Shown: positions 901 to 29,906, counted from the first letter of the stretch. The stretch: 36,421 nucleotides of DNA from a virus (IMGVR_UViG_2718218361_000002); one strand, 5' to 3'. Program-made: numbers and translations. Notes: generated by a model from the sequence alone, not told the origin.

Positions 901-1314
901 GATCGTATGTGCCTTTATGATTGGTCTGTAGATAGTGTAGAGCAGAAAACAAAAGGTGGAGTCAGAACAGGATGAAAGTCGGAGGATAAAAAGTCAGTTC
1001 AAGTATGGAGGATTCAGTGGTTACCACCAGGAGCTTGCAATGGGGACAGCGAATACTAACGGCTGCCACCGATAAATTTCAAAAAAGAGCATATGCCTAA
1101 TATTCAACCAAACAGTGGCATCTTAAATATACTATTCCAAATATATTAAAGCCCCCATGGAGTTACCCTGAAGGGCCTCAATGTCCGTAATTCCTACTTA
1201 TGTAGGAAATGTTGTACAGAACATTTATTATAATCCTATTCAATTATAATAATCATGCCATTATTATATTTAAACACTAGAGAGTGTCGTTGGTATTTAA
1301 TGGGGGAAGGTGAG

Positions 1315-1632
1315 ATGAAAAAGATAGCTGCTATATCATTAATTAGTATTTTTATTATGTCTGGTTGTGCTGTGCATAATGATGAGACAAGTATCGGTAA
1401 ATTTGGTCTTGCATATAAAAGTAATATTCAGCGTAAACTCGATAACCAATACTACACCGAAGCCGAAGCTTCTTTAGCCAGGGGCAGAATATCTGGTGCA
1501 GAAAATATAGTAAAAAATGATGCAGCCCATTTCTGTGTTACTCAGGGCAAAAAAATGCAGATAGTTGACCTGAAGACAGAAGGTGCAGGATTACATGGCG
1601 TCGCTCGTCTGACATTCAAATGTGGAGAGTGA
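1315..1632 (+). CDS. yegR: small lipoprotein-like protein YegR
   Basis: ORF track 1255..1632; I place the start at internal ATG 1315 (MKKIAAISLISIFIMSGCAV, signal peptide with cysteine), preceded by GGGGGAAGGTGAG; 105 aa. Confidence 0.8.
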   Translation: MKKIAAISLISIFIMSGCAVHNDETSIGKFGLAYKSNIQRKLDNQYYTEAEASLARGRISGAENIVKNDAAHFCVTQGKKMQIVDLKTEGAGLHGVARLTFKCGE

Positions 1633-5214: not shown

Positions 5215-5486
5215 GTATTCGTATTGAAATTGGCGAACGTTATGTCGTTACCAGTGACAGCTTTCAGTTTATTCTCCACGAGAAAAAGAGAGCGGAAAGC
5301 GGTAAAAACGCCGGTCAGGAATGGCTGGCGGTGGTTGGTTATTATCCGAAATTAAGCCAGCTCGTTTCCGGCCTGATGCATCACGATATTCTGACCGGAA
5401 GCGCAAAGTCTTTTGCTGATTTAAACGCGCAGGTTGAGCAACTCAGCAGGCGTTGTTCAGAGGCTTTTGGCTCATATGGCCGTTAA
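5211..5486 (+). CDS. hypothetical early protein (P2 orf83 position)
   Basis: 91-aa ORF, overlaps the A start. Confidence 0.6.
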   Translation: MSIRIEIGERYVVTSDSFQFILHEKKRAESGKNAGQEWLAVVGYYPKLSQLVSGLMHHDILTGSAKSFADLNAQVEQLSRRCSEAFGSYGR

Positions 5487-7752
5487 AGCCTCCGGGCGTT
5501 TTGTCCCTCCGTCAGCATTTGCCGCAGGCACCGGTAAGGCGTTTACCGGTGCTTATGCATGGAACGCGCCACGCGAGGCTGTCGGGCGCGAAAGACCCCT
5601 TACACGTGACGAGATGCGTCAGGTGCAAGGGGTTTTATCCACGATTAACCGTCTGCCTTACTTTTTGCGCTCGCTGTTTACTTCACGCTATGACTACATC
5701 CGGCGCAATAAAAGCCCGGTGCACGGGTTTTATTTCCTCACATCCACTTTTCAGCGTCGTTTATGGCCGCGCATTGAGCGTGTGAATCAGCGCCATGAAA
5801 TGAACACCGACGCGTCGTTGCTGTTTCTGGCAGAGCGCGACCAGTATGCGCGCCTGCCGGGGATGAATGACAAGGAGCTGAAAAAGTTTGCTGCCCGTAT
5901 CTCATCGCAGCTTTTCATGATGTATGAGGAACTCTGCGATGCCTGGGTGGATGCACATGGCGAAAAAGAATCGCTGTTTACGGATGAGGCGCAGGCTCAC
6001 CTCTATGGTCATGTTGCTGGCGCTGCACGTGCTTTCAATATTTCCCCGCTTTACTGGAAAAAATACCGTAAAGGGCAGATGACCACGAGGCAGGCATATT
6101 CTGCCATTGCCCGCCTGTTTAACGATGAGTGGTGGACTCATCAGCTTAAAGGCCAGCGTATGCGCTGGCATGAGGCGTTACTGATTGCTGTCGGGGAGGT
6201 CAATAAAGACCGTTCTCCTTATGCCAGTAAACATGCCATTCGTGATGTGCGTGCGCGCCGCCAGGCAAATCTGGAATTTCTTAAATCGTGTGACCTTGAA
6301 AACAGGGAAACCGGCGAGCGCATCGACCTTATCAGTAAGGTGATGGGCAGTATTTCTAATCCTGAAATTCGCCGGATGGAGCTGATGAACACCATTGCCG
6401 GTATTGAGCGTTACGCCGCCGCAGAGGGTGATGTGGGGATGTTTATCACGCTGACCGCGCCGTCAAAGTATCACCCGACACGTCAGGTCAGAAAAGGCGA
6501 AAGTAAAACCGTTCAGCTTAATCACGGCTGGAACGATGAGGCATTTAATCCAAAGGATGCGCAGCGTTATCTCTGCCGCATCTGGAGCCTGATGCGCACG
6601 GCATTCAAGGATAATGATTTACAGGTCTACGGTTTGCGTGTCGTCGAGCCACACCACGACGGAACGCCGCACTGGCATATGATGCTTTTTTGTAATCCAC
6701 GCCAGCGTAACCAGATTATTGAAATCATGCGTCGTTATGCGCTCAAAGAGGATGGCGACGAAAGAGGAGCCGCGCGAAACCGTTTTCAGGCAAAACACCT
6801 TAACCGGGGCGGTGCTGCGGGATATATCGCGAAATACATCTCAAAAAATATCGACGGCTATGCACTGGATGGTCAGCTCGATAACGATACCGGCAGACCG
6901 CTGAAAGACACTGCTGCGGCTGTTACCGCATGGGCGTCAACGTGGCGTATCCCGCAATTTAAAACGGTTGGCCTGCCGACAATGGGGGCTTACCGTGAAC
7001 TACGCAAACTGCCTCGCGGCGTCAGCATTGCTGATGAGTTTGACGAACGCGTCGAGGCTGTACGCGCCGCCGCAGACAGTGGTGATTTTGCGTTGTATAT
7101 CAGCGCGCAGGGTGGGGCAAATGTCCCGCGCGATTGTCAGACTGTCAGGGTTGCCCGTAGCCCGTCGGATGACGTTAACGAGTACGAGGAAGAAGTCGAG
7201 AGAGTGGTCGGCATTTACGCACCGCATCTCGGCGCGCGTCATATTCATATCACCAGAACCACGGACTGGCGCATTGTGCCGAAAGTGCCGGTCGTTGAGC
7301 CTTTGACTTTAAAAAGCGGCATCGCCGCGCCTCGGAGTCCTGTCAATAACTGTGGAAAGCTCACCGGTGGTGATACTTCGTTACCGGCTCCCACACCTTC
7401 TGAGCGCGCCGCAGCCGTGCTTAATCTGGTTGATGACGGTGTTATCGAATGGAATGACCCGGAGGTCGTGAGGGCGCTCAGGGGCGCATTAAAACACGGC
7501 CTGAGAACACCAAACCGTCAGCAAAGAAACGGAAGCCCGTTAAAACCGAATGAAATAGCGCCATCGGCCAGGCTGACCCGGTCGGAGCGTATGCAAATTA
7601 CCCGTATCCGTGTTGACCTTGCTCAGAACGGCATCTGGCCTCAGCGATGGGAACTTGAGGCGCTGGCGCGTGGAGCAACCGTAAATTATGACGGAAAAAA
7701 ATTCACGTATCTGGTCGCTGATGTGTGGCCGGGGTTCTCGTTACCCATTTGA
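5476..7752 (+). CDS. A: replication initiation protein A (rolling-circle nickase)
   Basis: ORF track 5434..7752; start placed at ATG 5476 (MAVKASGRFVPP...); ~758 aa; contains HWHMMLF (HUH-type motif) and tyrosine-rich GYIAKYISKNIDGY. Confidence 0.9.
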   Translation: MAVKASGRFVPPSAFAAGTGKAFTGAYAWNAPREAVGRERPLTRDEMRQVQGVLSTINRLPYFLRSLFTSRYDYIRRNKSPVHGFYFLTSTFQRRLWPRIERVNQRHEMNTDASLLFLAERDQYARLPGMNDKELKKFAARISSQLFMMYEELCDAWVDAHGEKESLFTDEAQAHLYGHVAGAARAFNISPLYWKKYRKGQMTTRQAYSAIARLFNDEWWTHQLKGQRMRWHEALLIAVGEVNKDRSPYASKHAIRDVRARRQANLEFLKSCDLENRETGERIDLISKVMGSISNPEIRRMELMNTIAGIERYAAAEGDVGMFITLTAPSKYHPTRQVRKGESKTVQLNHGWNDEAFNPKDAQRYLCRIWSLMRTAFKDNDLQVYGLRVVEPHHDGTPHWHMMLFCNPRQRNQIIEIMRRYALKEDGDERGAARNRFQAKHLNRGGAAGYIAKYISKNIDGYALDGQLDNDTGRPLKDTAAAVTAWASTWRIPQFKTVGLPTMGAYRELRKLPRGVSIADEFDERVEAVRAAADSGDFALYISAQGGANVPRDCQTVRVARSPSDDVNEYEEEVERVVGIYAPHLGARHIHITRTTDWRIVPKVPVVEPLTLKSGIAAPRSPVNNCGKLTGGDTSLPAPTPSERAAAVLNLVDDGVIEWNDPEVVRALRGALKHGLRTPNRQQRNGSPLKPNEIAPSARLTRSERMQITRIRVDLAQNGIWPQRWELEALARGATVNYDGKKFTYLVADVWPGFSLPI

Positions 7753-8012
7753 GTAAAAACACAACGTGATTTGATATGGCATTGAATGGCTTATGCGGAG
7801 CAGTTATGGGGCAGCAGAAGGTCAATAGCATGCTGAATTAGAAGGCTAAATGCTATTGAGTGACTAGCATGTCGGTAAGGACAGCCGTTTGATCCGGGTC
7901 ATAAAAGGCCATCCATTTAGTCTAATAAAATCATTGCGGGTAACCTTATGTCGACGCATAATTCGTCTTGAGCGAAGTCTTGTCAGTCTTTCATCGTATT
8001 GATGATGGGCGC

Positions 8013-8042
8013 AAAAAAACCACCCTGGCAGGTGGTTTTTTT
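8013..8042. terminator. bidirectional rho-independent terminator
   Basis: AAAAAAA-CCACC-ctggca-GGTGG-TTTTTTT; A-run upstream and T-run downstream. Confidence 0.7.
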
Positions 8043-8054
8043 GTTTGAAGCATA

Positions 8055-8168
8055 TTAAAGCATAATGCTGACATTGATATTACTGACGTTTACTGACAAA
8101 CCACTCGGACTACCGTTTGGATAGCCAAAGAGGGCCAGAACGAGAATGCAGTAATAGCATTTCTTCAT
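8055..8168 (-). CDS. small hydrophobic peptide (37 aa), candidate membrane peptide
   Basis: MKKCYYCILVLALFGYPNGSPSGLSVNVSNINVSIML; AGGAGG SD 5 nt before the ATG (plus-strand CAT 8166..8168); ends just before terminator 8013..8042; longer 88-aa reading exists but lacks an RBS. Confidence 0.3.
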   Translation of the reverse strand: MKKCYYCILVLALFGYPNGSPSGLSVNVSNINVSIML

Positions 8169-8646
8169 ATTGCCTCCTGTAAGTAGAGGGCAACTTCCAC
8201 CGGTATATGCGCTTGTTAGGTGGAATGACTTTTGAGCGAAGTCTTGCCCTGAAATAATGCTCTGTTTAAACGCAAAGTGATTTGGCATATCACCGAACAG
8301 AGAGCCGGAAAAACACAACATATAGTATGTCGTTGTTTCTAGACATACATTCTATGTTGTGTAACAAGGGCTTTGCATTAAACATGTTTGAGATTTTATT
8401 GATGTAGCTCAAAGTAAAAAACAGAGACTACGGATGATAAGGTCTTGAAAGCAATGTAAATTTTTTAAAGTTGCCAATTGCTTAAAAATGTACAGTTGCG
8501 GTATGGCGTACTTAAAAAGCTATGCATGCAACAAGTGAATGTTTTTGCATGCGCTGGGGATGTCCGTTCAGGCTGCGTGCGGTCAGGACTGGTGCGGATC
8601 CATAGTATCTATGCAACTGCATTAAAACCGCCCCGTGAAGCGGGCG

Positions 8647-8665
8647 GGCGAGGCGGGGAAAGCAC
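8647..8665. other. cos site (19-nt cohesive-end sequence)
   Basis: GGCGAGGCGGGGAAAGCAC, which I recall as the P2 cohesive-end sequence, in a GC-rich island inside AT-rich DNA. Confidence 0.7.
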
Positions 8666-8916
8666 CGCGCTCATGCAATGTGAAAATGTAATACCGATAG
8701 ACTTACCGTTTCAGAGTTAGGATGTTCATCATATTGAAGTAACATACGAGAGATTCAGCAGAGCGCAACAAGTTTGAGAAAACAGTCCATATATCTTAAC
8801 CTATTAGGACTGACGGAAAATGAAGCACTATTCTTCGTGGTTATTTAGTATAGTATTGACTTTTCAACACGATCAATGGTTTGATCAGTTCGTATGTAAT
8901 TGATTAAGGAAACTCA

Positions 8917-10350
8917 ATGAAAAAGCAAAGCGAAATTAACGTAAAAAAATTAGCATCATGGAGATTTTCATTTAAAAACATTGGGTGTATCTCTACAGGA
9001 GAAATTAATGCAAAACCTTTAACGCTTTTATGCGGAAAAAATAATACTGGTAAAACATGGGTTATGTATGGGTTATATGGCTTCCTAAATATGCCATCAC
9101 CATCTTTAAAATTGCCTCAAGTTGCAAATTTTGCCAAAACTCTTCGTGAAAATGGTAAGTTTGAATTAGATGTAATTGAGTGGATAAAAGATAATTTTAC
9201 GTTAATCAAAAGAGAATTTAATAAAGATTCATCTTTAATGCTTAAAGATGTATTCAACACTAATGATAAGGAAATTTTTTCTAATTCAACATTTGACTGG
9301 GTTATAGATGAAGAATCATTAGTATCAAGTGTTTATGAAAAAAAATTGGATGTTAGCCTCGTCATAGGAACCGGCAAAAAAGAAGTAATGCTATTATCCA
9401 AAGATAAAAATAGCAATATCATACAAATGACGCTGCTAGATTCTGCTTTCCCCAGAATTGATGGGTTTATAAACTTAACTCTAAGTCAGTTATTAAAGAT
9501 AGAGTATGATGAAAGCCCAGCATTTTTAATTCCCGCAGAAAGAAATGGCTTGCACCTTTTTTTCAATGAATTAAGTTCCAGAAGAACTGCGTTATTGCAC
9601 CACGCCTCAAAAGAACAGTTCGATCTGAACTCACTATTAATGGATGTAATGAAGTCTAAGTATTCTGCTCCTATAGCAAATTACATAGACTGGCTTAATG
9701 AAATTAAGGTTAATAGGAAAAATAAAAATGGCCAATTTCATAAATTAGCAGAAGAAGTAAAAAAAATAATTTCAGGAAAATATTCAGTTGATCCTGAAGG
9801 GCAGATTTATTTTTCAACGTATAAGAAAGGTAAGACACCTGCAAGTAAAATTGAACTTCATTTATCGTCATCCACTGTTAAAAGTTTGTTTGGCCTGTGG
9901 TTTTATTTAGAGCACCAAGCAAAAACTGGTGATATTTTAATGATTGACGAACCCGAGTTAAATTTACACCCGTCAAATCAGCGAGTAATTGCAAGATTTT
10001 TAGCAAAGCTAGTTAACTCTGGTATTCGGGTTATTGTTAGTACTCACAGTGATTATTTTGTAAAAGAAATCAATAGCTTGATTATGTTGCATGGCGTTTC
10101 TGAAAATATGATTGAAAAACGAAACGCTATCATGCAGAAGCAAGGGATTAGCATCGACTCAATTTTAGACTCTAACCTAGTCGCTGCGTATCTATTTGAT
10201 AATGGCTCAGTCAATGAAATGCAGAAGTCAAATGAAGGGATTAATGCTGTAACTTTTGATGAAGTAATTAATGCCATTAATGACGATAATGATGAAATAT
10301 ATTACTCCTTGGTGGAGAATGCCTCTGATAGTGAGGATGTAGATGAGTAA
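8917..10350 (+). CDS. ABC-type (AAA_15/AAA_21-like) ATPase, OLD/AbiLi/AriA/PtuA-like, family unassigned
   Basis: 477 aa; Walker A CGKNNTGKT, signature-like LSSSTVKSLFGL, Walker B DILMIDEPE, H-loop STHSDYF; ~280-aa insertion between Walker A and B; acidic C-terminal tail; SD TAAGGA; AT-rich. Confidence 0.85.
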   Translation: MKKQSEINVKKLASWRFSFKNIGCISTGEINAKPLTLLCGKNNTGKTWVMYGLYGFLNMPSPSLKLPQVANFAKTLRENGKFELDVIEWIKDNFTLIKREFNKDSSLMLKDVFNTNDKEIFSNSTFDWVIDEESLVSSVYEKKLDVSLVIGTGKKEVMLLSKDKNSNIIQMTLLDSAFPRIDGFINLTLSQLLKIEYDESPAFLIPAERNGLHLFFNELSSRRTALLHHASKEQFDLNSLLMDVMKSKYSAPIANYIDWLNEIKVNRKNKNGQFHKLAEEVKKIISGKYSVDPEGQIYFSTYKKGKTPASKIELHLSSSTVKSLFGLWFYLEHQAKTGDILMIDEPELNLHPSNQRVIARFLAKLVNSGIRVIVSTHSDYFVKEINSLIMLHGVSENMIEKRNAIMQKQGISIDSILDSNLVAAYLFDNGSVNEMQKSNEGINAVTFDEVINAINDDNDEIYYSLVENASDSEDVDE

Positions 10351-10915
10351 TATTATCAATGTAATACAAAGTTGCATCGATCCTACATTTCAATTAATGC
10401 GAGAGCAGGAATGCTGGGTTGTATGCGAAGAGAACCCAGGTGCTACAAATAAAAAATTACTGGTAAACGGAAATGGTATCTATGGATTTTCGCTAGATTC
10501 TAATAGTATTTCTAAACCAGTCTGGAAATTTTTAAAATCTTCTGCTTTACCAGGAGTATGCTCTGTTTGTGATGGAATTTTTGTTACGTCGCACAAAGAC
10601 GTAGATTATTTTATCGTAATAGATCTCAAATCTTATAACTCAAATGGTGCGGCTAAACAGGTAGTTACTGGCATTCATTTTTGTAAGTGGCTATATTCTG
10701 TATTGAATTTACATGGGCATTTGTCAAGAAAAGTGGATTACATTGGTGTAATAAGTAAATTATCGAGGAGGCAGCAATCAGCTAAAAAAACAACTGTTCG
10801 CTCGCAATTGCCTCCTCCTGAAATTTGCTATAATTATCCTGTGTTTACATTGGAAAACTATAACAGATTATCACTGGCGCATATTTGTGACTTTATATAC
10901 AATATGAAAAAATAA
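10343..10915 (+). CDS. small partner protein (190 aa), possible TOPRIM-like or PD-(D/E)xK-like nuclease, family unassigned
   Basis: ATG overlaps the ATPase stop by 8 nt, with GAGGA SD; motifs VVCEEN, CSVCDG, HKDVDYFIVIDLK; AT-rich. Confidence 0.8.
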   Translation: MSNIINVIQSCIDPTFQLMREQECWVVCEENPGATNKKLLVNGNGIYGFSLDSNSISKPVWKFLKSSALPGVCSVCDGIFVTSHKDVDYFIVIDLKSYNSNGAAKQVVTGIHFCKWLYSVLNLHGHLSRKVDYIGVISKLSRRQQSAKKTTVRSQLPPPEICYNYPVFTLENYNRLSLAHICDFIYNMKK

Positions 10916-20250: not shown

Positions 20251-21324
20251 TTACTTTCCATTTTTTAATGAATTGATTAACGATGCTATTTGCTCAATGC
20301 CATCAAATGTAGATGGTATCTTATCATCGGATAGCATGATGTTTGAAAATACTACGTCTTCGAATTTTGAAAGCGCTTCCGGATTGTTTTTCCTTATCTC
20401 TGAGGAATAGTCGCTATAACTCTGAATGAACTGACAAAGGCTCTTTCTGAGTTCTATTTGCATAATCTGAGTTCGTAACGATATATGATTTATCAGTACA
20501 ACTCTAAAGTAATACATGAAAATCAATGTAACTGATGCAAAAGGTAGTGCTGACATAAAATATGTGGCAGCATTTGTCGTTTCGAGAGTTGGTAATTTAT
20601 GCATTCCATAGTATATCAGCGGGGAGGGAATGATTATAGCCAAGATGATAAGAATTATTCTTGATAGCATGATTTCACTTTCTTTCTTTTTGCCAAGTGA
20701 ATTAAAGCCATCAAACAATCCAACAAAATTAAATGCGACCTCATACCCTTTTAATGACTCTTTAATTGACTCTATTTTGGCATGTTGCTCCTTTAAGAAG
20801 GAGTCGCACTTTTCGAAAAATTGACGCCCTTCGTTTAAACTATCAATGTATTTTTTATATGTGTCAACATTGCTGGAGCTTAAAACTTCTTTAACCATTG
20901 CTAATGGCAGTTCTCTAAGAGAAAAGTCTATCTGTGCTCTGCTCCGCTCATCGAATTCATTATAGTTATACAGAGCAAAATCCTTGATGGTTCTTAGTGG
21001 TGAAAAGTGAGACTCTATTTCCGGAGAGAGAATGCTTGGTTCAATGATAAATCTAAAAAAGCAAGTGAATATAAGGTTGATGCTGTTGTTATCTTCCCCC
21101 TTTTCTCTTAAGAAACTTTTAAAGGTGTCGCCAATCATAGCAATGTTGTACTGGGATTTTTTGTCCCAATCTTCAGGGTTTTCGGAAATGAAGTTTATTG
21201 CTTGAGCAATTATTTTGTTTCTGTTTGATTCAAAGTTTGTGCTGGGAGTCAGCGTGTTCAAAAAGACCAGATAATCTTTGAACAATTCTTTCATTGTTTC
21301 TGACGAGAAAAAGTAAGTACTCAT
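20251..21324 (-). CDS. hypothetical two-pass membrane protein (accessory gene at the S-V locus, P2 orf30 position)
   Basis: ORF track 20251..21420; start placed at internal ATG (plus-strand CAT 21322..21324) to avoid overlapping V; ~357 aa; hydrophobic helices IMLSRIILIILAIIIPSPLIYYG and YFMSALPFASVTLIFMYYFRVVLI; AT-rich, opposite to the late genes. Confidence 0.75.
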   Translation of the reverse strand: MSTYFFSSETMKELFKDYLVFLNTLTPSTNFESNRNKIIAQAINFISENPEDWDKKSQYNIAMIGDTFKSFLREKGEDNNSINLIFTCFFRFIIEPSILSPEIESHFSPLRTIKDFALYNYNEFDERSRAQIDFSLRELPLAMVKEVLSSSNVDTYKKYIDSLNEGRQFFEKCDSFLKEQHAKIESIKESLKGYEVAFNFVGLFDGFNSLGKKKESEIMLSRIILIILAIIIPSPLIYYGMHKLPTLETTNAATYFMSALPFASVTLIFMYYFRVVLINHISLRTQIMQIELRKSLCQFIQSYSDYSSEIRKNNPEALSKFEDVVFSNIMLSDDKIPSTFDGIEQIASLINSLKNGK

Positions 21325-21410
21325 AATGGATTTTGTTGTCCCTTGTTGTTCTGTGCACCAGAAATCGTGGTGTGATTTACTTCGAGATTGTACAGAATCA
21401 TTATTATCGA

Positions 21411-22040
21411 ATGAATGCACAATACAATGAAATTCTTCGCTTTATACGCAATATGATTCGCACTGGCATTATCGTCGAAACCGACCTTAATGCCGGTCGC
21501 TGCCGTGTGCAGACCGGCGGCATGTGCACCGACTGGCTTCAGTGGCTGACCCATCGCGCTGGGCGTTCGCGCACATGGTGGGCACCTTCCGTGGGGGAAC
21601 AGGTGCTGATTCTGGCCGTGGGCGGTGAACTCGACACGGCGTTCGTTCTGCCGGGGATTTATTCCGGCGATAACCCTGCGCCGTCTGCGTCGGCGGATGC
21701 CCTGCATATCCGTTTCCCTGACGGGGCGGTGATTGAGTATGAACCTGAAACCAGTGCACTCACGGTAAGCGGAATTAAAACGGCCAGCGTGACGGCTTCT
21801 GATTCTGTTACTGCCACGGTACCAGTGGTCACGGTGAAAGCATCAACCCGCGTCACCCTGGACACACCAGAAGTGGTCTGCACTAACAAACTGACTACCG
21901 GCACGCTGGAAGTGCAGAAGGGCGGGACGATGCGCGGCAACATTGAACACACCGGCGGTGAACTCTCATCAAACGGTAAGGTACTGCATACCCACAAACA
22001 CCCCGGCGACAGCGGCGGCACAACCGGGAGTCCTTTATGA
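21411..22040 (+). CDS. V: baseplate spike/assembly protein V
   Basis: ORF track 21333..22040; start at ATG 21411 (MNAQYNEILRFIRNMIRTG...); 209 aa. Confidence 0.9.
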   Translation: MNAQYNEILRFIRNMIRTGIIVETDLNAGRCRVQTGGMCTDWLQWLTHRAGRSRTWWAPSVGEQVLILAVGGELDTAFVLPGIYSGDNPAPSASADALHIRFPDGAVIEYEPETSALTVSGIKTASVTASDSVTATVPVVTVKASTRVTLDTPEVVCTNKLTTGTLEVQKGGTMRGNIEHTGGELSSNGKVLHTHKHPGDSGGTTGSPL

Positions 22041-25853: not shown

Positions 25854-26381
25854 ATGATGCACTTAAAGAAAATAAAAGCGGGTAACGCTAAAACACTGGA
25901 ACAGTATGAGTTAACAAAGAAACACGGAGTTATCTGGCTTTACTCTGAGGACGGAAAAAACTGGTATGAGGAAGTGAAGAACTTTCAGCCAGATACAATA
26001 AAGATTGTTTACGATGAAAATAATATTATTGTCGCTATCACCAGAGATGCTTCAACGCTTAATCCTGAAGGTTTTAGCGTTGTCGAGGTTCCTGATATTA
26101 CCGCCAACCGACGTGCTGATGACTCAGGGAAATGGATGTTTAAGGATGGTGCCGTGATTAAGCGGATTTATACGGCAGACGAACAGCAACAACAGGCCGA
26201 ATCACAAAAGGCCGCGTTACTTTCCGAAGCTGAATCAGTTATCCAGCCGCTGGAACGCGCCGTCAGGCTGAATATGGCGACGGATGAGGAGCGCGCACGA
26301 CTGGAGTCATGGGAACGCTACAGCGTTCTGGTCAGCCGTGTGGATCCTGCAAATCCTGAATGGCCGGAAATACCGCAATAA
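25854..26381 (+). CDS. G: tail fiber assembly chaperone
   Basis: 175 aa immediately downstream of H. Confidence 0.9.
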
Positions 26382-26671
26382 GTTGTATGATATCTGGAGT
26401 GAGCTAACGTATCTATGGCACAGAGTAAAACTTAATCTGACAGTCTGCTCTGTACCAAAAGCGGAACTTGCTTACATCGTGCTATGTTAGTTTGCTGGGA
26501 GCAGGTCATTATCTACGTGATTGCTATTTTATAACTTGGATAAAATGGGGGATGAACATAATATCGAGACAGTGATTGCAGAGTTAGTCATTATAGGCGG
26601 GCATCAGTTCATGCCGGATCTCTAATGCAATTATCAGGAAAATATGGGACGTTTTATCAATCAGAGGAAAT

Positions 26672-27898
26672 ATGTTACAGTTCAGCTTTGTATCAAATGA
26701 CGTTGTTATGACTTACGACGGTGACAGCGGAGAACAAATAATTTGGGTTTGGGAGAGTTTAAATAAATTTCAAACAGTATGCATTTCACGCATTTTTAAC
26801 TTTCAACTCCAGGACTTGAGAAACCCACCGTCAACCGTTCAGGATTTTAATGATTATGAATATTCCTTTAATTTTGGCACGCTTAATAATGAATACATAA
26901 CAGTTCCGGGACGGATTCTAAGCATTAATCGAGATGTCCTTATACATAAGTCCATCAAGCTTGAAAGGAAAGTATTTGCGTCAGAACGCAACGTCTCCAT
27001 TTTTGGTCGGCTTTCAAAACTACTCGATCACACTAATCCCATCATCATCGGAGGAGATAAGCCGGAAGCTATACCAAAAAGCGTATTCCAGGAGTTGCAA
27101 AGTAAATTCCCCAACACAGGGGAACTGGATCGCTATGCTAATGCAAGGGTTCACGCTATTCTCGCAGGTTATCTTGATGGTATGAAAGATGCTCGCGAAC
27201 GGTATGAACATTACCTAAACAGAAAAACAGTGATCAGAAAAACCGACAAACTGGATTTAGAAGTTTTAAATAAGCTCGAAATTGAGAAATATACACTCAT
27301 AAGAGACATTATCCAGGATGCGTTGAATAACAAAACTAACTTGTCTGAAGATGACTGGCAGAGCCTGATGATACCCTTCATCACATTACTTTTTCCAAAA
27401 TATATCAAGGTCCTCGAGAAGGTTAAAATTTTCGACTATTACTCTAATCCTTCGGCTAAAACAAATCGGTTTATAGACATTGCACTGGTGGATGCAAACG
27501 GCAACCTTGATATCATCGAAGTCAAAAAGCCGTTTGATGATAAGATCCTTCGCAAGACGCCCTATCGCGACAACTATATTCCTACATCAGAACTTAGCGG
27601 CGGTATTATGCAGGCTGAAAAGTATATTTTTCATTTATCTAAATGGGGTGTTAAGGGTGAAAAAGAGCTTACGAATGCCTACAAGAATTCTCTGCCAGCG
27701 GGAATGTGTATTCGTATATCTAACCCAAAAGCCATCATCATTGTCGGGCGCGATCAGATAGCGAACGGTAACATGACCGACGGTCAGTTGCTTGATTTTG
27801 AGATAATCAAACGTAAGTACGCCAACATGATAGACATATTGACGTACGACGACCTGTTGCGTCGACTTAATAATACGATTGAAGCATTGAAAGGTTGA
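26672..27898 (+). CDS. PD-(D/E)xK nuclease-like protein, Shedu/DUF4263-like candidate (accessory gene at the G-FI locus, P2 Z/fun position)
   Basis: 408 aa; SD GAGGAA; C-terminal half has RFIDIALVDANGNLDIIEVKKP (D...D...ExK) followed by AIIIVGRD; AT-rich. Confidence 0.8.
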   Translation: MLQFSFVSNDVVMTYDGDSGEQIIWVWESLNKFQTVCISRIFNFQLQDLRNPPSTVQDFNDYEYSFNFGTLNNEYITVPGRILSINRDVLIHKSIKLERKVFASERNVSIFGRLSKLLDHTNPIIIGGDKPEAIPKSVFQELQSKFPNTGELDRYANARVHAILAGYLDGMKDARERYEHYLNRKTVIRKTDKLDLEVLNKLEIEKYTLIRDIIQDALNNKTNLSEDDWQSLMIPFITLLFPKYIKVLEKVKIFDYYSNPSAKTNRFIDIALVDANGNLDIIEVKKPFDDKILRKTPYRDNYIPTSELSGGIMQAEKYIFHLSKWGVKGEKELTNAYKNSLPAGMCIRISNPKAIIIVGRDQIANGNMTDGQLLDFEIIKRKYANMIDILTYDDLLRRLNNTIEALKG

Positions 27899-27967
27899 AT
27901 GTCCATGAGGTTCACACCCACAACGGGGAGCAGGTCACTTCCTATTGTTTGATTGACATACCATAAC

Positions 27968-27991
27968 GTCTGCTTTTGGCTCAAAGCAGAC
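27968..27991 (+). terminator. hairpin downstream of the nuclease-like gene (weak terminator)
   Basis: GTCTGCTTT-tggctc-AAAGCAGAC, T-poor tail. Confidence 0.4.
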
Positions 27992-28057
27992 TGTCTGATT
28001 TGATAGCTTTTGGGCTATGTAAATTGTCAGTTGAAAGATGAGTGAGTACAAATCAGG

Positions 28058-28088
28058 ACGGGCGGGCGAGTTGCCCGCCTTTTCTTTA
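28058..28088 (+). terminator. rho-independent terminator
   Basis: GGCGGGC-gagtt-GCCCGCC followed by TTTTCTTT. Confidence 0.7.
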
Positions 28089-28184
28089 ATCTGTTGTTTC
28101 ATCCACTGACCAGCCAGGTCAAATAGCGTCTCATGCTCTGCACAACAGAAAATAGTTGCACCCATTAACCACGGAGTTAAACGG

Positions 28185-29375
28185 ATGAGCGACTATCATC
28201 ATGGCGTGCAGGTGCTGGAGATTAACGACGGCACCCGCGTCATTTCCACCGTATCCACGGCCATTGTCGGCATGGTCTGCACGGCCAGCGATGCGGATGC
28301 GGAAATCTTCCCCCTCAATAAACCGGTACTGATTACCAATGTGCAGAGCGCAATTGCAAAGGCTGGTAAAAAAGGCACGCTGGCGGCATCGTTGCAGGCC
28401 ATCGCCGACCAGTCAAAACCGGTCACCGTTGTCGTACGTGTGGAAGACGGCACCGGCGACGACGAGGAAACGAAACTCGCGCAGACCGTTTCCAATATCA
28501 TCGGCACCACCGACGAAAACGGTCAGTACACCGGACTGAAAGCCCTGCTGGCGGCGGAGTCGGTAACCGGTGTTAAACCGCGTATTCTCGGCGTGCCGGG
28601 ACTGGATACCAAAGAGGTGGCTGTTGCACTGGCATCAGTCTGTCAGAAGCTGCGCGCTTTCGGGTATATCAGCGCATGGGGCTGTAAAACCATTTCCGAG
28701 GTGAAAGCCTACCGTCAGAATTTCAGCCAGCGTGAGCTGATGGTCATCTGGCCGGATTTCCTCGCATGGGATACGGTCACCAGTACCACCGCCACCGCGT
28801 ATGCCACCGCCCGTGCGCTGGGGCTGCGCGCTAAAATCGACCAGGAGCAGGGCTGGCATAAAACGCTGTCCAATGTCGGGGTGAACGGTGTTACCGGCAT
28901 CAGCGCCTCTGTATTCTGGGATTTGCAGGAGTCCGGTACTGATGCTGACCTGCTTAACGAGTCAGGCGTCACAACGCTGATTCGCCGTGACGGTTTCCGC
29001 TTCTGGGGTAACCGTACCTGCTCTGATGACCCGCTGTTCCTCTTTGAAAACTACACCCGCACCGCGCAGGTGCTGGCCGACACGATGGCTGAGGCGCACA
29101 TGTGGGCGGTGGACAAGCCCATCACTGCAACGCTGATTCGCGACATCGTTGACGGTATTAATGCCAAATTCCGTGAGCTGAAAACAAACGGCTATATCGT
29201 GGATGCGACCTGCTGGTTCAGCGAAGAATCCAACGATGCGCAAACCCTCAAGGCCGGAAAACTGTATATCGACTACGACTATACCCCGGTGCCTCCTCTT
29301 GAAAACCTGACCCTGCGCCAGCGTATTACCGATAAATACCTGGCAAATCTGGTCACCTCGGTTAACAGCAATTAA
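28185..29375 (+). CDS. FI: tail sheath protein
   Basis: 396 aa; MSDYHHGVQVLEINDGTRVISTV... Confidence 0.95.
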   Translation: MSDYHHGVQVLEINDGTRVISTVSTAIVGMVCTASDADAEIFPLNKPVLITNVQSAIAKAGKKGTLAASLQAIADQSKPVTVVVRVEDGTGDDEETKLAQTVSNIIGTTDENGQYTGLKALLAAESVTGVKPRILGVPGLDTKEVAVALASVCQKLRAFGYISAWGCKTISEVKAYRQNFSQRELMVIWPDFLAWDTVTSTTATAYATARALGLRAKIDQEQGWHKTLSNVGVNGVTGISASVFWDLQESGTDADLLNESGVTTLIRRDGFRFWGNRTCSDDPLFLFENYTRTAQVLADTMAEAHMWAVDKPITATLIRDIVDGINAKFRELKTNGYIVDATCWFSEESNDAQTLKAGKLYIDYDYTPVPPLENLTLRQRITDKYLANLVTSVNSN

Positions 29376-29387
29376 GGAGCCTGACCG

Positions 29388-29906
29388 ATGGCAATGCCGC
29401 GCAAACTCAAGTTAATGAACGTCTTTCTGAACGGCTACAGCTATCAGGGCGTTGCAAAGTCCGTCACGCTGCCAAAACTGACCCGTAAGCTTGAAAACTA
29501 TCGCGGTGCGGGGATGAACGGCAGCGCACCGGTAGACCTCGGCCTTGATGACGATGCGCTGTCAATGGAGTGGTCGCTCGGGGGCTTCCCGGATTCGGTT
29601 ATCTGGGAGCTTTACGCCGCAACCGGTGTGGATGCCGTGCCGATTCGTTTTGCCGGCTCTTACCAGCGCGACGATACCGGCGAAACGGTGGCCGTCGAGG
29701 TGGTCATGCGTGGCCGTCAGAAAGAAATCGACACCGGCGAGGGGAAACAGGGAGAAGATACCGAGTCGAAAATCTCCGTGGTCTGCACCTATTTCCGGCT
29801 GACGATGGATGGTAAGGAGCTGGTCGAAATTGACACCATCAACATGATTGAGAAGGTGAACGGCGTCGACCGGCTGGAGCAACACCGCCGCAATATCGGC
29901 CTGTGA
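29388..29906 (+). CDS. FII: tail tube protein
   Basis: 172 aa; SD AAGGAG. Confidence 0.95.
   Translation: MAMPRKLKLMNVFLNGYSYQGVAKSVTLPKLTRKLENYRGAGMNGSAPVDLGLDDDALSMEWSLGGFPDSVIWELYAATGVDAVPIRFAGSYQRDDTGETVAVEVVMRGRQKEIDTGEGKQGEDTESKISVVCTYFRLTMDGKELVEIDTINMIEKVNGVDRLEQHRRNIGL

Follow-up and report, generated by a model that had tools for sequence, protein, structure and literature searches.

What is encoded by the single AT-rich gene between the tail fibre assembly gene G and the tail sheath gene FI of this P2-like prophage, and is it a relative of the Z/fun gene that occupies the same slot in P2? The DNA analysed here (the window; 36,421 nucleotides of viral sequence, IMGVR_UViG_2718218361_000002) is a complete P2-like prophage, with a yegS-like kinase gene at its left end, an integrase gene at 1897-2910 and replication gene A at 5434-7752; judged by likeness to E. 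coli strain S21, the late genes would be followed by ogr and yegQ at the right end. The Z/fun locus is a recognised second defence hotspot of P2, and Shedu systems are known to occur in this locus of P2 prophages (Loeff et al., Cell 2025;188:721). We consider it highly probable that the ORF encodes EcSduA, a Shedu nuclease carried as a moron in the Z/fun hotspot and protecting the lysogen from other phages.

The gene, which we call sduA (EcSduA/PD-T4-8-type Shedu nuclease), occupies 26672..27898 on the plus strand, an assignment based on the ORF listing, Pfam, PADLOC and identity to PDB entries. It begins with an ATG at 26672, ends with a stop codon at 27898 and encodes 408 aa plus stop. A Shine-Dalgarno sequence, AGAGGA (26663..26668, plus strand), can be read directly from the DNA 3-4 nt 5' of the ATG. 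With 39.7% GC, the gene lies below both the window as a whole (50.3%) and the P2 late genes on either side of it (about 56-57%). Because the longest open frame in the cassette spans 433 codons, and the corresponding value in 500 shuffled versions of this DNA averaged 87 and reached 178 at most, the open frame of sduA cannot be put down to chance.

The ORF listing contains no other credible ORF in the variable segment 26466-27963, and the RefSeq annotation of the identical region in E. coli S21 has a single gene in the interval from G to FI. The idea of a partner gene or antitoxin in the cassette was rejected, the remaining ORFs being either nested out-of-frame or a 76-aa minus-strand ORF (27935-28165) that spans the conserved terminators; none of these is called by PGAP. 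The cassette thus holds sduA alone, which is the arrangement of a single-gene Shedu system, and a single gene is sufficient to confer defence (Loeff et al.; likewise Vassallo et al.).

The neighbours of sduA are structural genes of the tail. A 673-aa tail fibre (Phage_tail_fib) is among them, as is G, upstream (tail fibre assembly, Caudo_TAP, 25854-26381, 175 aa, Pfam E=7e-37); downstream lie FI (tail sheath, Phage_sheath_1, 28185-29375, 396 aa, Pfam E=1e-33) and, after it, FII (tail tube, Phage_tube, 29388-29906, 172 aa). When the window is aligned with P2, homology extends beyond G as far as about 26465, disappears and is found again at about 27964, so the variable cassette measures about 1.5 kb. 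Its limits (26466..27963) come from alignments with both P2 and P2-EC31, and it has no similarity to the Z/fun cassette of P2.

The flanks of this cassette are conserved. The left arm of an inverted repeat (26434..26465) is backbone sequence that P2 has as well, and is labelled 'left inverted repeat' in GenBank record AJ512677; it is 32 nt long and 84% complementary to the right arm (27969..28000), which is likewise conserved and annotated in that record and overlaps the first of two terminators. This first terminator-like hairpin (27968..27991, plus strand) has a 9-bp stem, GTCTGCTTT/AAAGCAGAC, followed by a T-rich tail. The second, a GC-rich intrinsic terminator (28060..28080, plus strand), consists of GGGCGGGC/GCCCGCC and then TTTTCTTT; it sits in the conserved backbone upstream of FI and is kept in P2. 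Both hairpins also appear in the RNA fold of 27899-28100.

Lying between G and FI and inside the conserved inverted-repeat and terminator flanks, sduA is a member of the hotspot. The preliminary description of this DNA had reported a 408-aa AT-rich ORF standing alone between G and FI as single-gene cargo of the Z/fun locus, preceded by a good Shine-Dalgarno sequence and followed by two hairpin terminators. All of this held: the ORF listing, the GC content and the Pfam matches of the neighbours agree with the isolated AT-rich ORF, the assignment to the locus is borne out by the G, FI and FII neighbours, the P2 alignment and the one gene in S21, AGAGGA stands 3-4 nt before the ATG, and the two plus-strand hairpins were recovered at 27968-27991 and 28060-28080.

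Functional annotation gives a consistent family assignment. The sole Pfam match of the sduA product is SduA_C (PF14082, formerly DUF4263), which is matched over profile positions 2-159 of 159 by residues 224-396 (score 115.6 bits, cutoff 27; E=3.1e-33); DUF4263 lies in the C-terminal half, and nothing in Pfam matches residues 1-223. In PADLOC, 16 SduA models match, the best being PDLC04067 over its full length (E=9.9e-220) and the other 15 being weaker. The product falls into phrog_18241 (function unknown) among the PHROGs. A search of NCBIfam with the sduA product gave no match, a result that reflects the coverage of that library and is not evidence against Shedu.

The identity can be taken further than the family. 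The window protein is identical at 408/408 residues to the chains of PDB entries 8PS4 and 8PS5, and at 188/188 residues to 8PS6, all three being deposited as 'Shedu effector protein'. By exact-sequence look-up, the same protein is present on 409 contigs, NCBI naming it 'Shedu immune nuclease family protein', and its accessions include ELC07825.1, which is that of the EcSduA construct from E. coli KTE10 (Loeff et al., Cell 2025;188:721). RefSeq uses the same name for the 100%-identical locus of E. coli S21, which lies in a full P2-like prophage. The preliminary description had suggested a Shedu/DUF4263-like PD-(D/E)xK nuclease with a variable N-terminal domain; the first part is supported by the SduA_C match, where the HMM search against DUF4263 passed its cutoff, by the PADLOC SduA models and by complete identity to a solved EcSduA, and the second agrees with a nuclease match that starts at residue 224 with nothing in Pfam before it.

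The same gene had been recorded independently before. One record is PD-T4-8, described by Vassallo et al. (Nat Microbiol 2022) as a DUF4263 single gene of 1227 nt from strain ECOR31 (RCP52534.1), selected against T4 and protective from its native promoter on a low-copy plasmid; Gu et al. class it as a type 1B Shedu. The other is AJ512677, from an accession series of the early 2000s, which holds ORF1 of the proviral Z region of P2-EC31, the ECOR31 prophage, and is 99.0% identical to the window over 1862 nt (record position 1 corresponds to window position 26352). The ORF annotated there is only 362 aa long, as the record lacks one T of a T-run (window 27627; record position 1275); with this T restored, the product has 408 aa and differs from the window protein at two residues, T121N and C346R. 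We rejected the 362-aa ORF as a natural truncated variant. A sequencing error in AJ512677 is likelier, because a single T is missing and the genome assembly of ECOR31 itself gives a 1227-nt gene.

The name given to ORF1 in that record, 'putative lysogenic conversion protein', raises the question of whether sduA might serve lysogenic conversion or virulence and have nothing to do with defence against phages, a role that would also suit an AT-rich moron in a prophage. We consider this extremely improbable, as the label predates any functional data and direct experiments give nuclease-dependent anti-phage activity. The label is imprecise and not contradictory, because defending the host against phages also counts as lysogenic conversion.

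As the window protein is the one whose structure was solved, the published domain limits can be transferred directly: an N-terminal DNA-end clamp domain (residues 1-145), an alpha-helical linker (146-194) and the DUF4263 PD-(D/E)xK nuclease domain (195-408). The motif RFIDIALVDANGNLDIIEVKKP corresponds to residues 266-287 and contains the nuclease-core codons D269 ... E283-V-K285 (27476..27526, plus strand); the active-site codons for E226, Q230 and Q314 start at 27347, 27359 and 27611, respectively, on the same strand. All of these residues were checked in the translation. Trp25, by which the clamp stabilises a bound DNA end, is encoded at 26744..26746 (plus strand) and is likewise present in the translation. 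In total, 13 of the 13 functional residues named by Loeff et al. are found in the protein. In the identical protein, alanine substitutions at E226, Q230, D269, E283, K285 and Q314 abolish both defence and cleavage, and W25A loses both defence and the restriction of linear DNA (Loeff et al., bioRxiv 10.1101/2023.08.10.552762). The acidic residue followed by E-x-K that had been picked out by eye in the C-terminal half can now be identified with D269, E283 and K285, which are experimentally validated catalytic residues.

The sduA product is a type I Shedu in the scheme of Loeff et al. and a type 1B Shedu in that of Gu et al. It has the traits of this type, namely a long N-terminal region before DUF4263 together with W25, R106, K116, R154, Y181, Y256 and K263.

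The mechanism of EcSduA has been worked out by cryo-EM, SEC-MALS and nuclease assays, and was restated in a 2026 review. The protein is a homotetramer, built as a dimer of dimers (Loeff et al., Cell 2025;188:721; bioRxiv 10.1101/2023.08.10.552762), in which the DUF4263 domains form the body and the paired N-terminal domains form two clamps. Each clamp is about 17 A wide, which is too narrow for continuous B-DNA and admits only a free dsDNA end, stabilised by Trp25; from there, the DNA follows a basic channel (R106/K116, R154/Y181, Y256/K263) that takes it over the active site of the C-terminal domain, in which E226, Q230, D269, E283, K285 and Q314 act with Mg2+. The nick falls in the 5' strand, about 13-14 nt from the end, and shows no sequence specificity; ssDNA and ssRNA are left uncut. 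Linear fragments are restricted about 10-fold, in a manner that needs W25 and D269, circular plasmids are unrestricted, and circular DNA in general, chromosome and plasmids alike, is spared. The nuclease domain alone is toxic, and the N-terminal domain thus gates the nuclease (all Loeff et al.).

Against phages, EcSduA gives >30,000-fold protection from T2 and T6, and its strong defence is described as limited to 'a single family of phages', that of T2 and T6 (Loeff et al., Cell 2025;188:721). The PD-T4-8 allele, nearly identical in sequence, gives strong defence against T4. T6 escapers carry uvsW mutations by which the UvsW helicase is lost, and this fits an attack on the linear intermediates of recombination-dependent replication. 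Two observations from the same work count against this mechanism: purified EcSduA did not appreciably degrade T2, T6 or T7 genomic DNA in vitro, and in the structure with bound DNA, about 12 A separate the strand to be cut from the catalytic centre.

Carried over to the lysogen, the published mechanism would have the N-terminal clamp of the SduA tetramer admit a free dsDNA end, to be held by Trp25, and the end would then thread through the basic channel to the DUF4263 site, where the 5' strand would be nicked about 13-14 nt in. Linear intermediates of the recombination-dependent replication of phages would be attacked in this way, and circular host DNA would be spared.

A putative promoter at 26536..26564 (plus strand; -35 TTGGAT, 17-nt spacer, -10 TAATAT) can be carried over by coordinates from the annotation of AJ512677. 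It is weak in comparison with the consensus, and a consensus scan for plus-strand sigma-70 promoters upstream of sduA found none. In unlabelled columns of the supplement to Vassallo et al., the cloned PD-T4-8 fragment appears to start 257 nt upstream of the ORF; since a fragment with this much upstream DNA protects from its native promoter, a promoter should lie within 26415-26671. We therefore expect sduA to be transcribed from a weak promoter of its own within about 260 nt upstream, and the two terminators would insulate it from the late tail operon.

Loeff et al. assayed EcSduA under an arabinose promoter and outside a lysogen, and one may ask whether, at native expression, SduA instead acts by abortive infection, with both host and phage DNA damaged and the infected cell dying. 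Abortive infection had been proposed for PD-T4-8, according to Gu et al.; 12 of the 21 systems of Vassallo et al., which were expressed from native promoters on low-copy plasmids, were scored as abortive; the isolated nuclease domain of EcSduA is toxic, as mentioned earlier; and the two-component KELShedu of E. coli acts by abortive infection (Zhang et al., Sci Adv 2025). Set against these points, arabinose-driven EcSduA cultures infected with T6 at an MOI of 5 grew as uninfected controls did, and the restriction of linear fragments, dependent on W25 and D269, left circular plasmids untouched (Loeff et al.). On balance, we regard abortive infection as unlikely and favour direct, end-dependent attack on linear phage DNA.

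Whether the ORF is a homologue of P2 Z/fun was a question that the preliminary description left open. It can be answered from the alignment: BLASTP against the 299-aa P2 gene at the Z/fun position gave E=0.97 over 15 residues, and the two proteins belong to different PHROGs, phrog_7195 for the P2 gene and phrog_18241 for sduA. Homology is rejected, and we conclude that this is an unrelated gene at the same locus. The 299-aa P2 gene has no Pfam domain. The target phage of P2 fun is T5. Sharing the slot between G and FI, sduA might still be a functional substitute for Z/fun, with the blocking of T5-like phages as its main role. Such a role is very improbable: besides the absence of sequence similarity and the separate PHROGs noted above, a T5 block of the Z/fun kind is unsupported because strong defence is reported for T2 and T6 only, though T5 was in the six-phage panel (Loeff et al.). 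A nuclease with T-even phages among its reported targets remains the preferred reading.

Of 5426 complete E. coli genomes, 958 have the conserved flanks and only 53 have the SduA cassette, which they carry in prophages on the chromosome; other P2-like phages have different cargo between G and FI. The conserved 32-nt inverted repeat brackets the hotspot in both the window and P2 despite the difference in cargo, and may be the homology source for cassette exchange. It is by such an exchange between the conserved inverted-repeat flanks that sduA would have arrived.

A second repeat was seen in the same region. Two exact copies of the 12-nt direct repeat GGGAGCAGGTCA, at 26497..26508 and 27926..27937 (both plus strand), are located just inside the cassette, about 30 nt from each boundary. 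Even when one mismatch is allowed, the window contains only these two matches, against 0.11 expected. P2-EC31 and E. coli S21 have both copies in the corresponding positions, and P2's own cassette lacks the repeat.

A P2-type phage may tolerate SduA because P2 circularises via its cos ends and uses monomeric circles, not linear concatemers, for both replication and packaging. One might go further and propose that GGGAGCAGGTCA and the inverted repeats together mark a specific, so far unrecognised form of cargo exchange at the Z/fun hotspot, not plain homologous recombination between the flanks, and that it is these circles that allow P2-like phages to carry an end-sensing nickase. As a whole, we rate this further proposal as distinctly unlikely. 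If the part concerning P2 circles were true, phages with concatemeric or linear replication intermediates should lack this Shedu subtype. A tblastn search of 50,697 GenBank phage records found the window SduA solely in the 1.9-kb P2-EC31 fragment and in no complete phage genome, which is in line with that prediction.

Other variable loci of the prophage carry cargo as well. Gene A and the portal gene are separated by the first defence hotspot of P2, which here holds a two-gene system (8917-10915, plus strand, GC 30-36%). Its first gene encodes a 477-aa AAA_15/AAA_21 ATPase (PADLOC PD-T4-4_A, E=2e-112) and overlaps the second, which encodes 190 aa (PD-T4-4_B, E=1e-15; phrog_14491). PD-T4-4 is a known system type, described by Vassallo et al. 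2022. Between gene A and this ATPase lies about 1.1 kb of AT-rich DNA (7753-8916, GC about 39-41%) with no ORF of at least 90 aa, the largest being an 88-aa minus-strand ORF without a PADLOC match; this segment may have a regulatory role, be the remains of a gene or encode an RNA.

A further AT-rich island (20251-21420, minus strand, GC about 36%) is found between an S-like gene and the baseplate gene V, at the 'orf30' position of P2. Its ORF measures 389 aa from a GTG, or 347 aa from the ATG used by RefSeq, and two hydrophobic stretches, possible transmembrane segments, can be discerned by eye in the C-terminal half. The product has no Pfam or PADLOC match and falls into phrog_9373 (function unknown). 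Its phage relatives are only hypothetical proteins, from Yersinia P2-like phages (37-39% identity) and Klebsiella phage-plasmids, and it is a candidate for an uncharacterised moron or defence gene. Lastly, an AT-rich 125-aa ORF (1255-1632, plus strand) between the yegS-like gene and the integrase gene belongs to phrog_21109 (function unknown) and has no Pfam or PADLOC match. The window illustrates how a single P2-like prophage can collect cargo for defence in its variable loci, here a PD-T4-4-like system, a membrane-protein candidate and Shedu.

The gene, its structure, its mechanism, its phage phenotype and its location at P2 Z/fun are all published already, and the RefSeq name is correct. 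As a discovery, sduA therefore carries little weight, everything about the protein being known. That a Shedu-type nuclease and its hotspot could be recognised from raw sequence alone makes the locus useful as a positive control for readings of this sort.

Comparison with known systems places sduA as follows. The EcSduA of E. coli KTE10 (ELC07825.1; 8PS4/8PS5/8PS6) is the same protein at 408/408 residues and hence shares its architecture, catalytic residues and end-sensing clamp; with no difference at the protein level, the host strain or the copy of the prophage alone may differ. PD-T4-8/P2-EC31 ORF1 is this gene again, in the P2 locus described here and equally 1227 nt long, and is set apart by its two amino-acid substitutions and by having been selected against T4, with abortive infection suggested for it per Gu et al.

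The founding Shedu, SduA of Bacillus cereus B4264 (Doron et al. 2018; 8TI9/8TIA; Gu et al.), likewise is a single gene with a C-terminal DUF4263 PD-(D/E)xK domain, and its product is also oligomeric, with an N-terminal domain that regulates the nuclease. The two proteins are very distant: the nuclease domain alone aligns (phmmer E=0.017), and PD-T4-8 was held to be 'not homologous' to the validated B. cereus Shedu by Vassallo et al. 2022. The B. cereus protein is of type 1A, with an sPC4/Whirly-type N-terminal domain, whereas that of the window is of type 1B, with a different N-terminal domain (Gu et al.). The two-component KELShedu of E. coli also employs a DUF4263 nuclease in phage defence, but it requires the dsDNA-binding partner KELA; NTPs inhibit it, and its mode of action is abortive infection (Zhang et al., Sci Adv 2025); no gene for a KELA-type DNA-binding partner was found next to sduA, either among the ORFs of the cassette or in the annotation of S21.

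P2 Z/fun, finally, shares with sduA the hotspot and the same conserved inverted repeats and terminators, and each is an AT-rich, non-essential gene that forms the cargo by itself and has been linked to the exclusion of other phages. They have no detectable homology, and their reported targets differ, those of EcSduA being the T-even phages.
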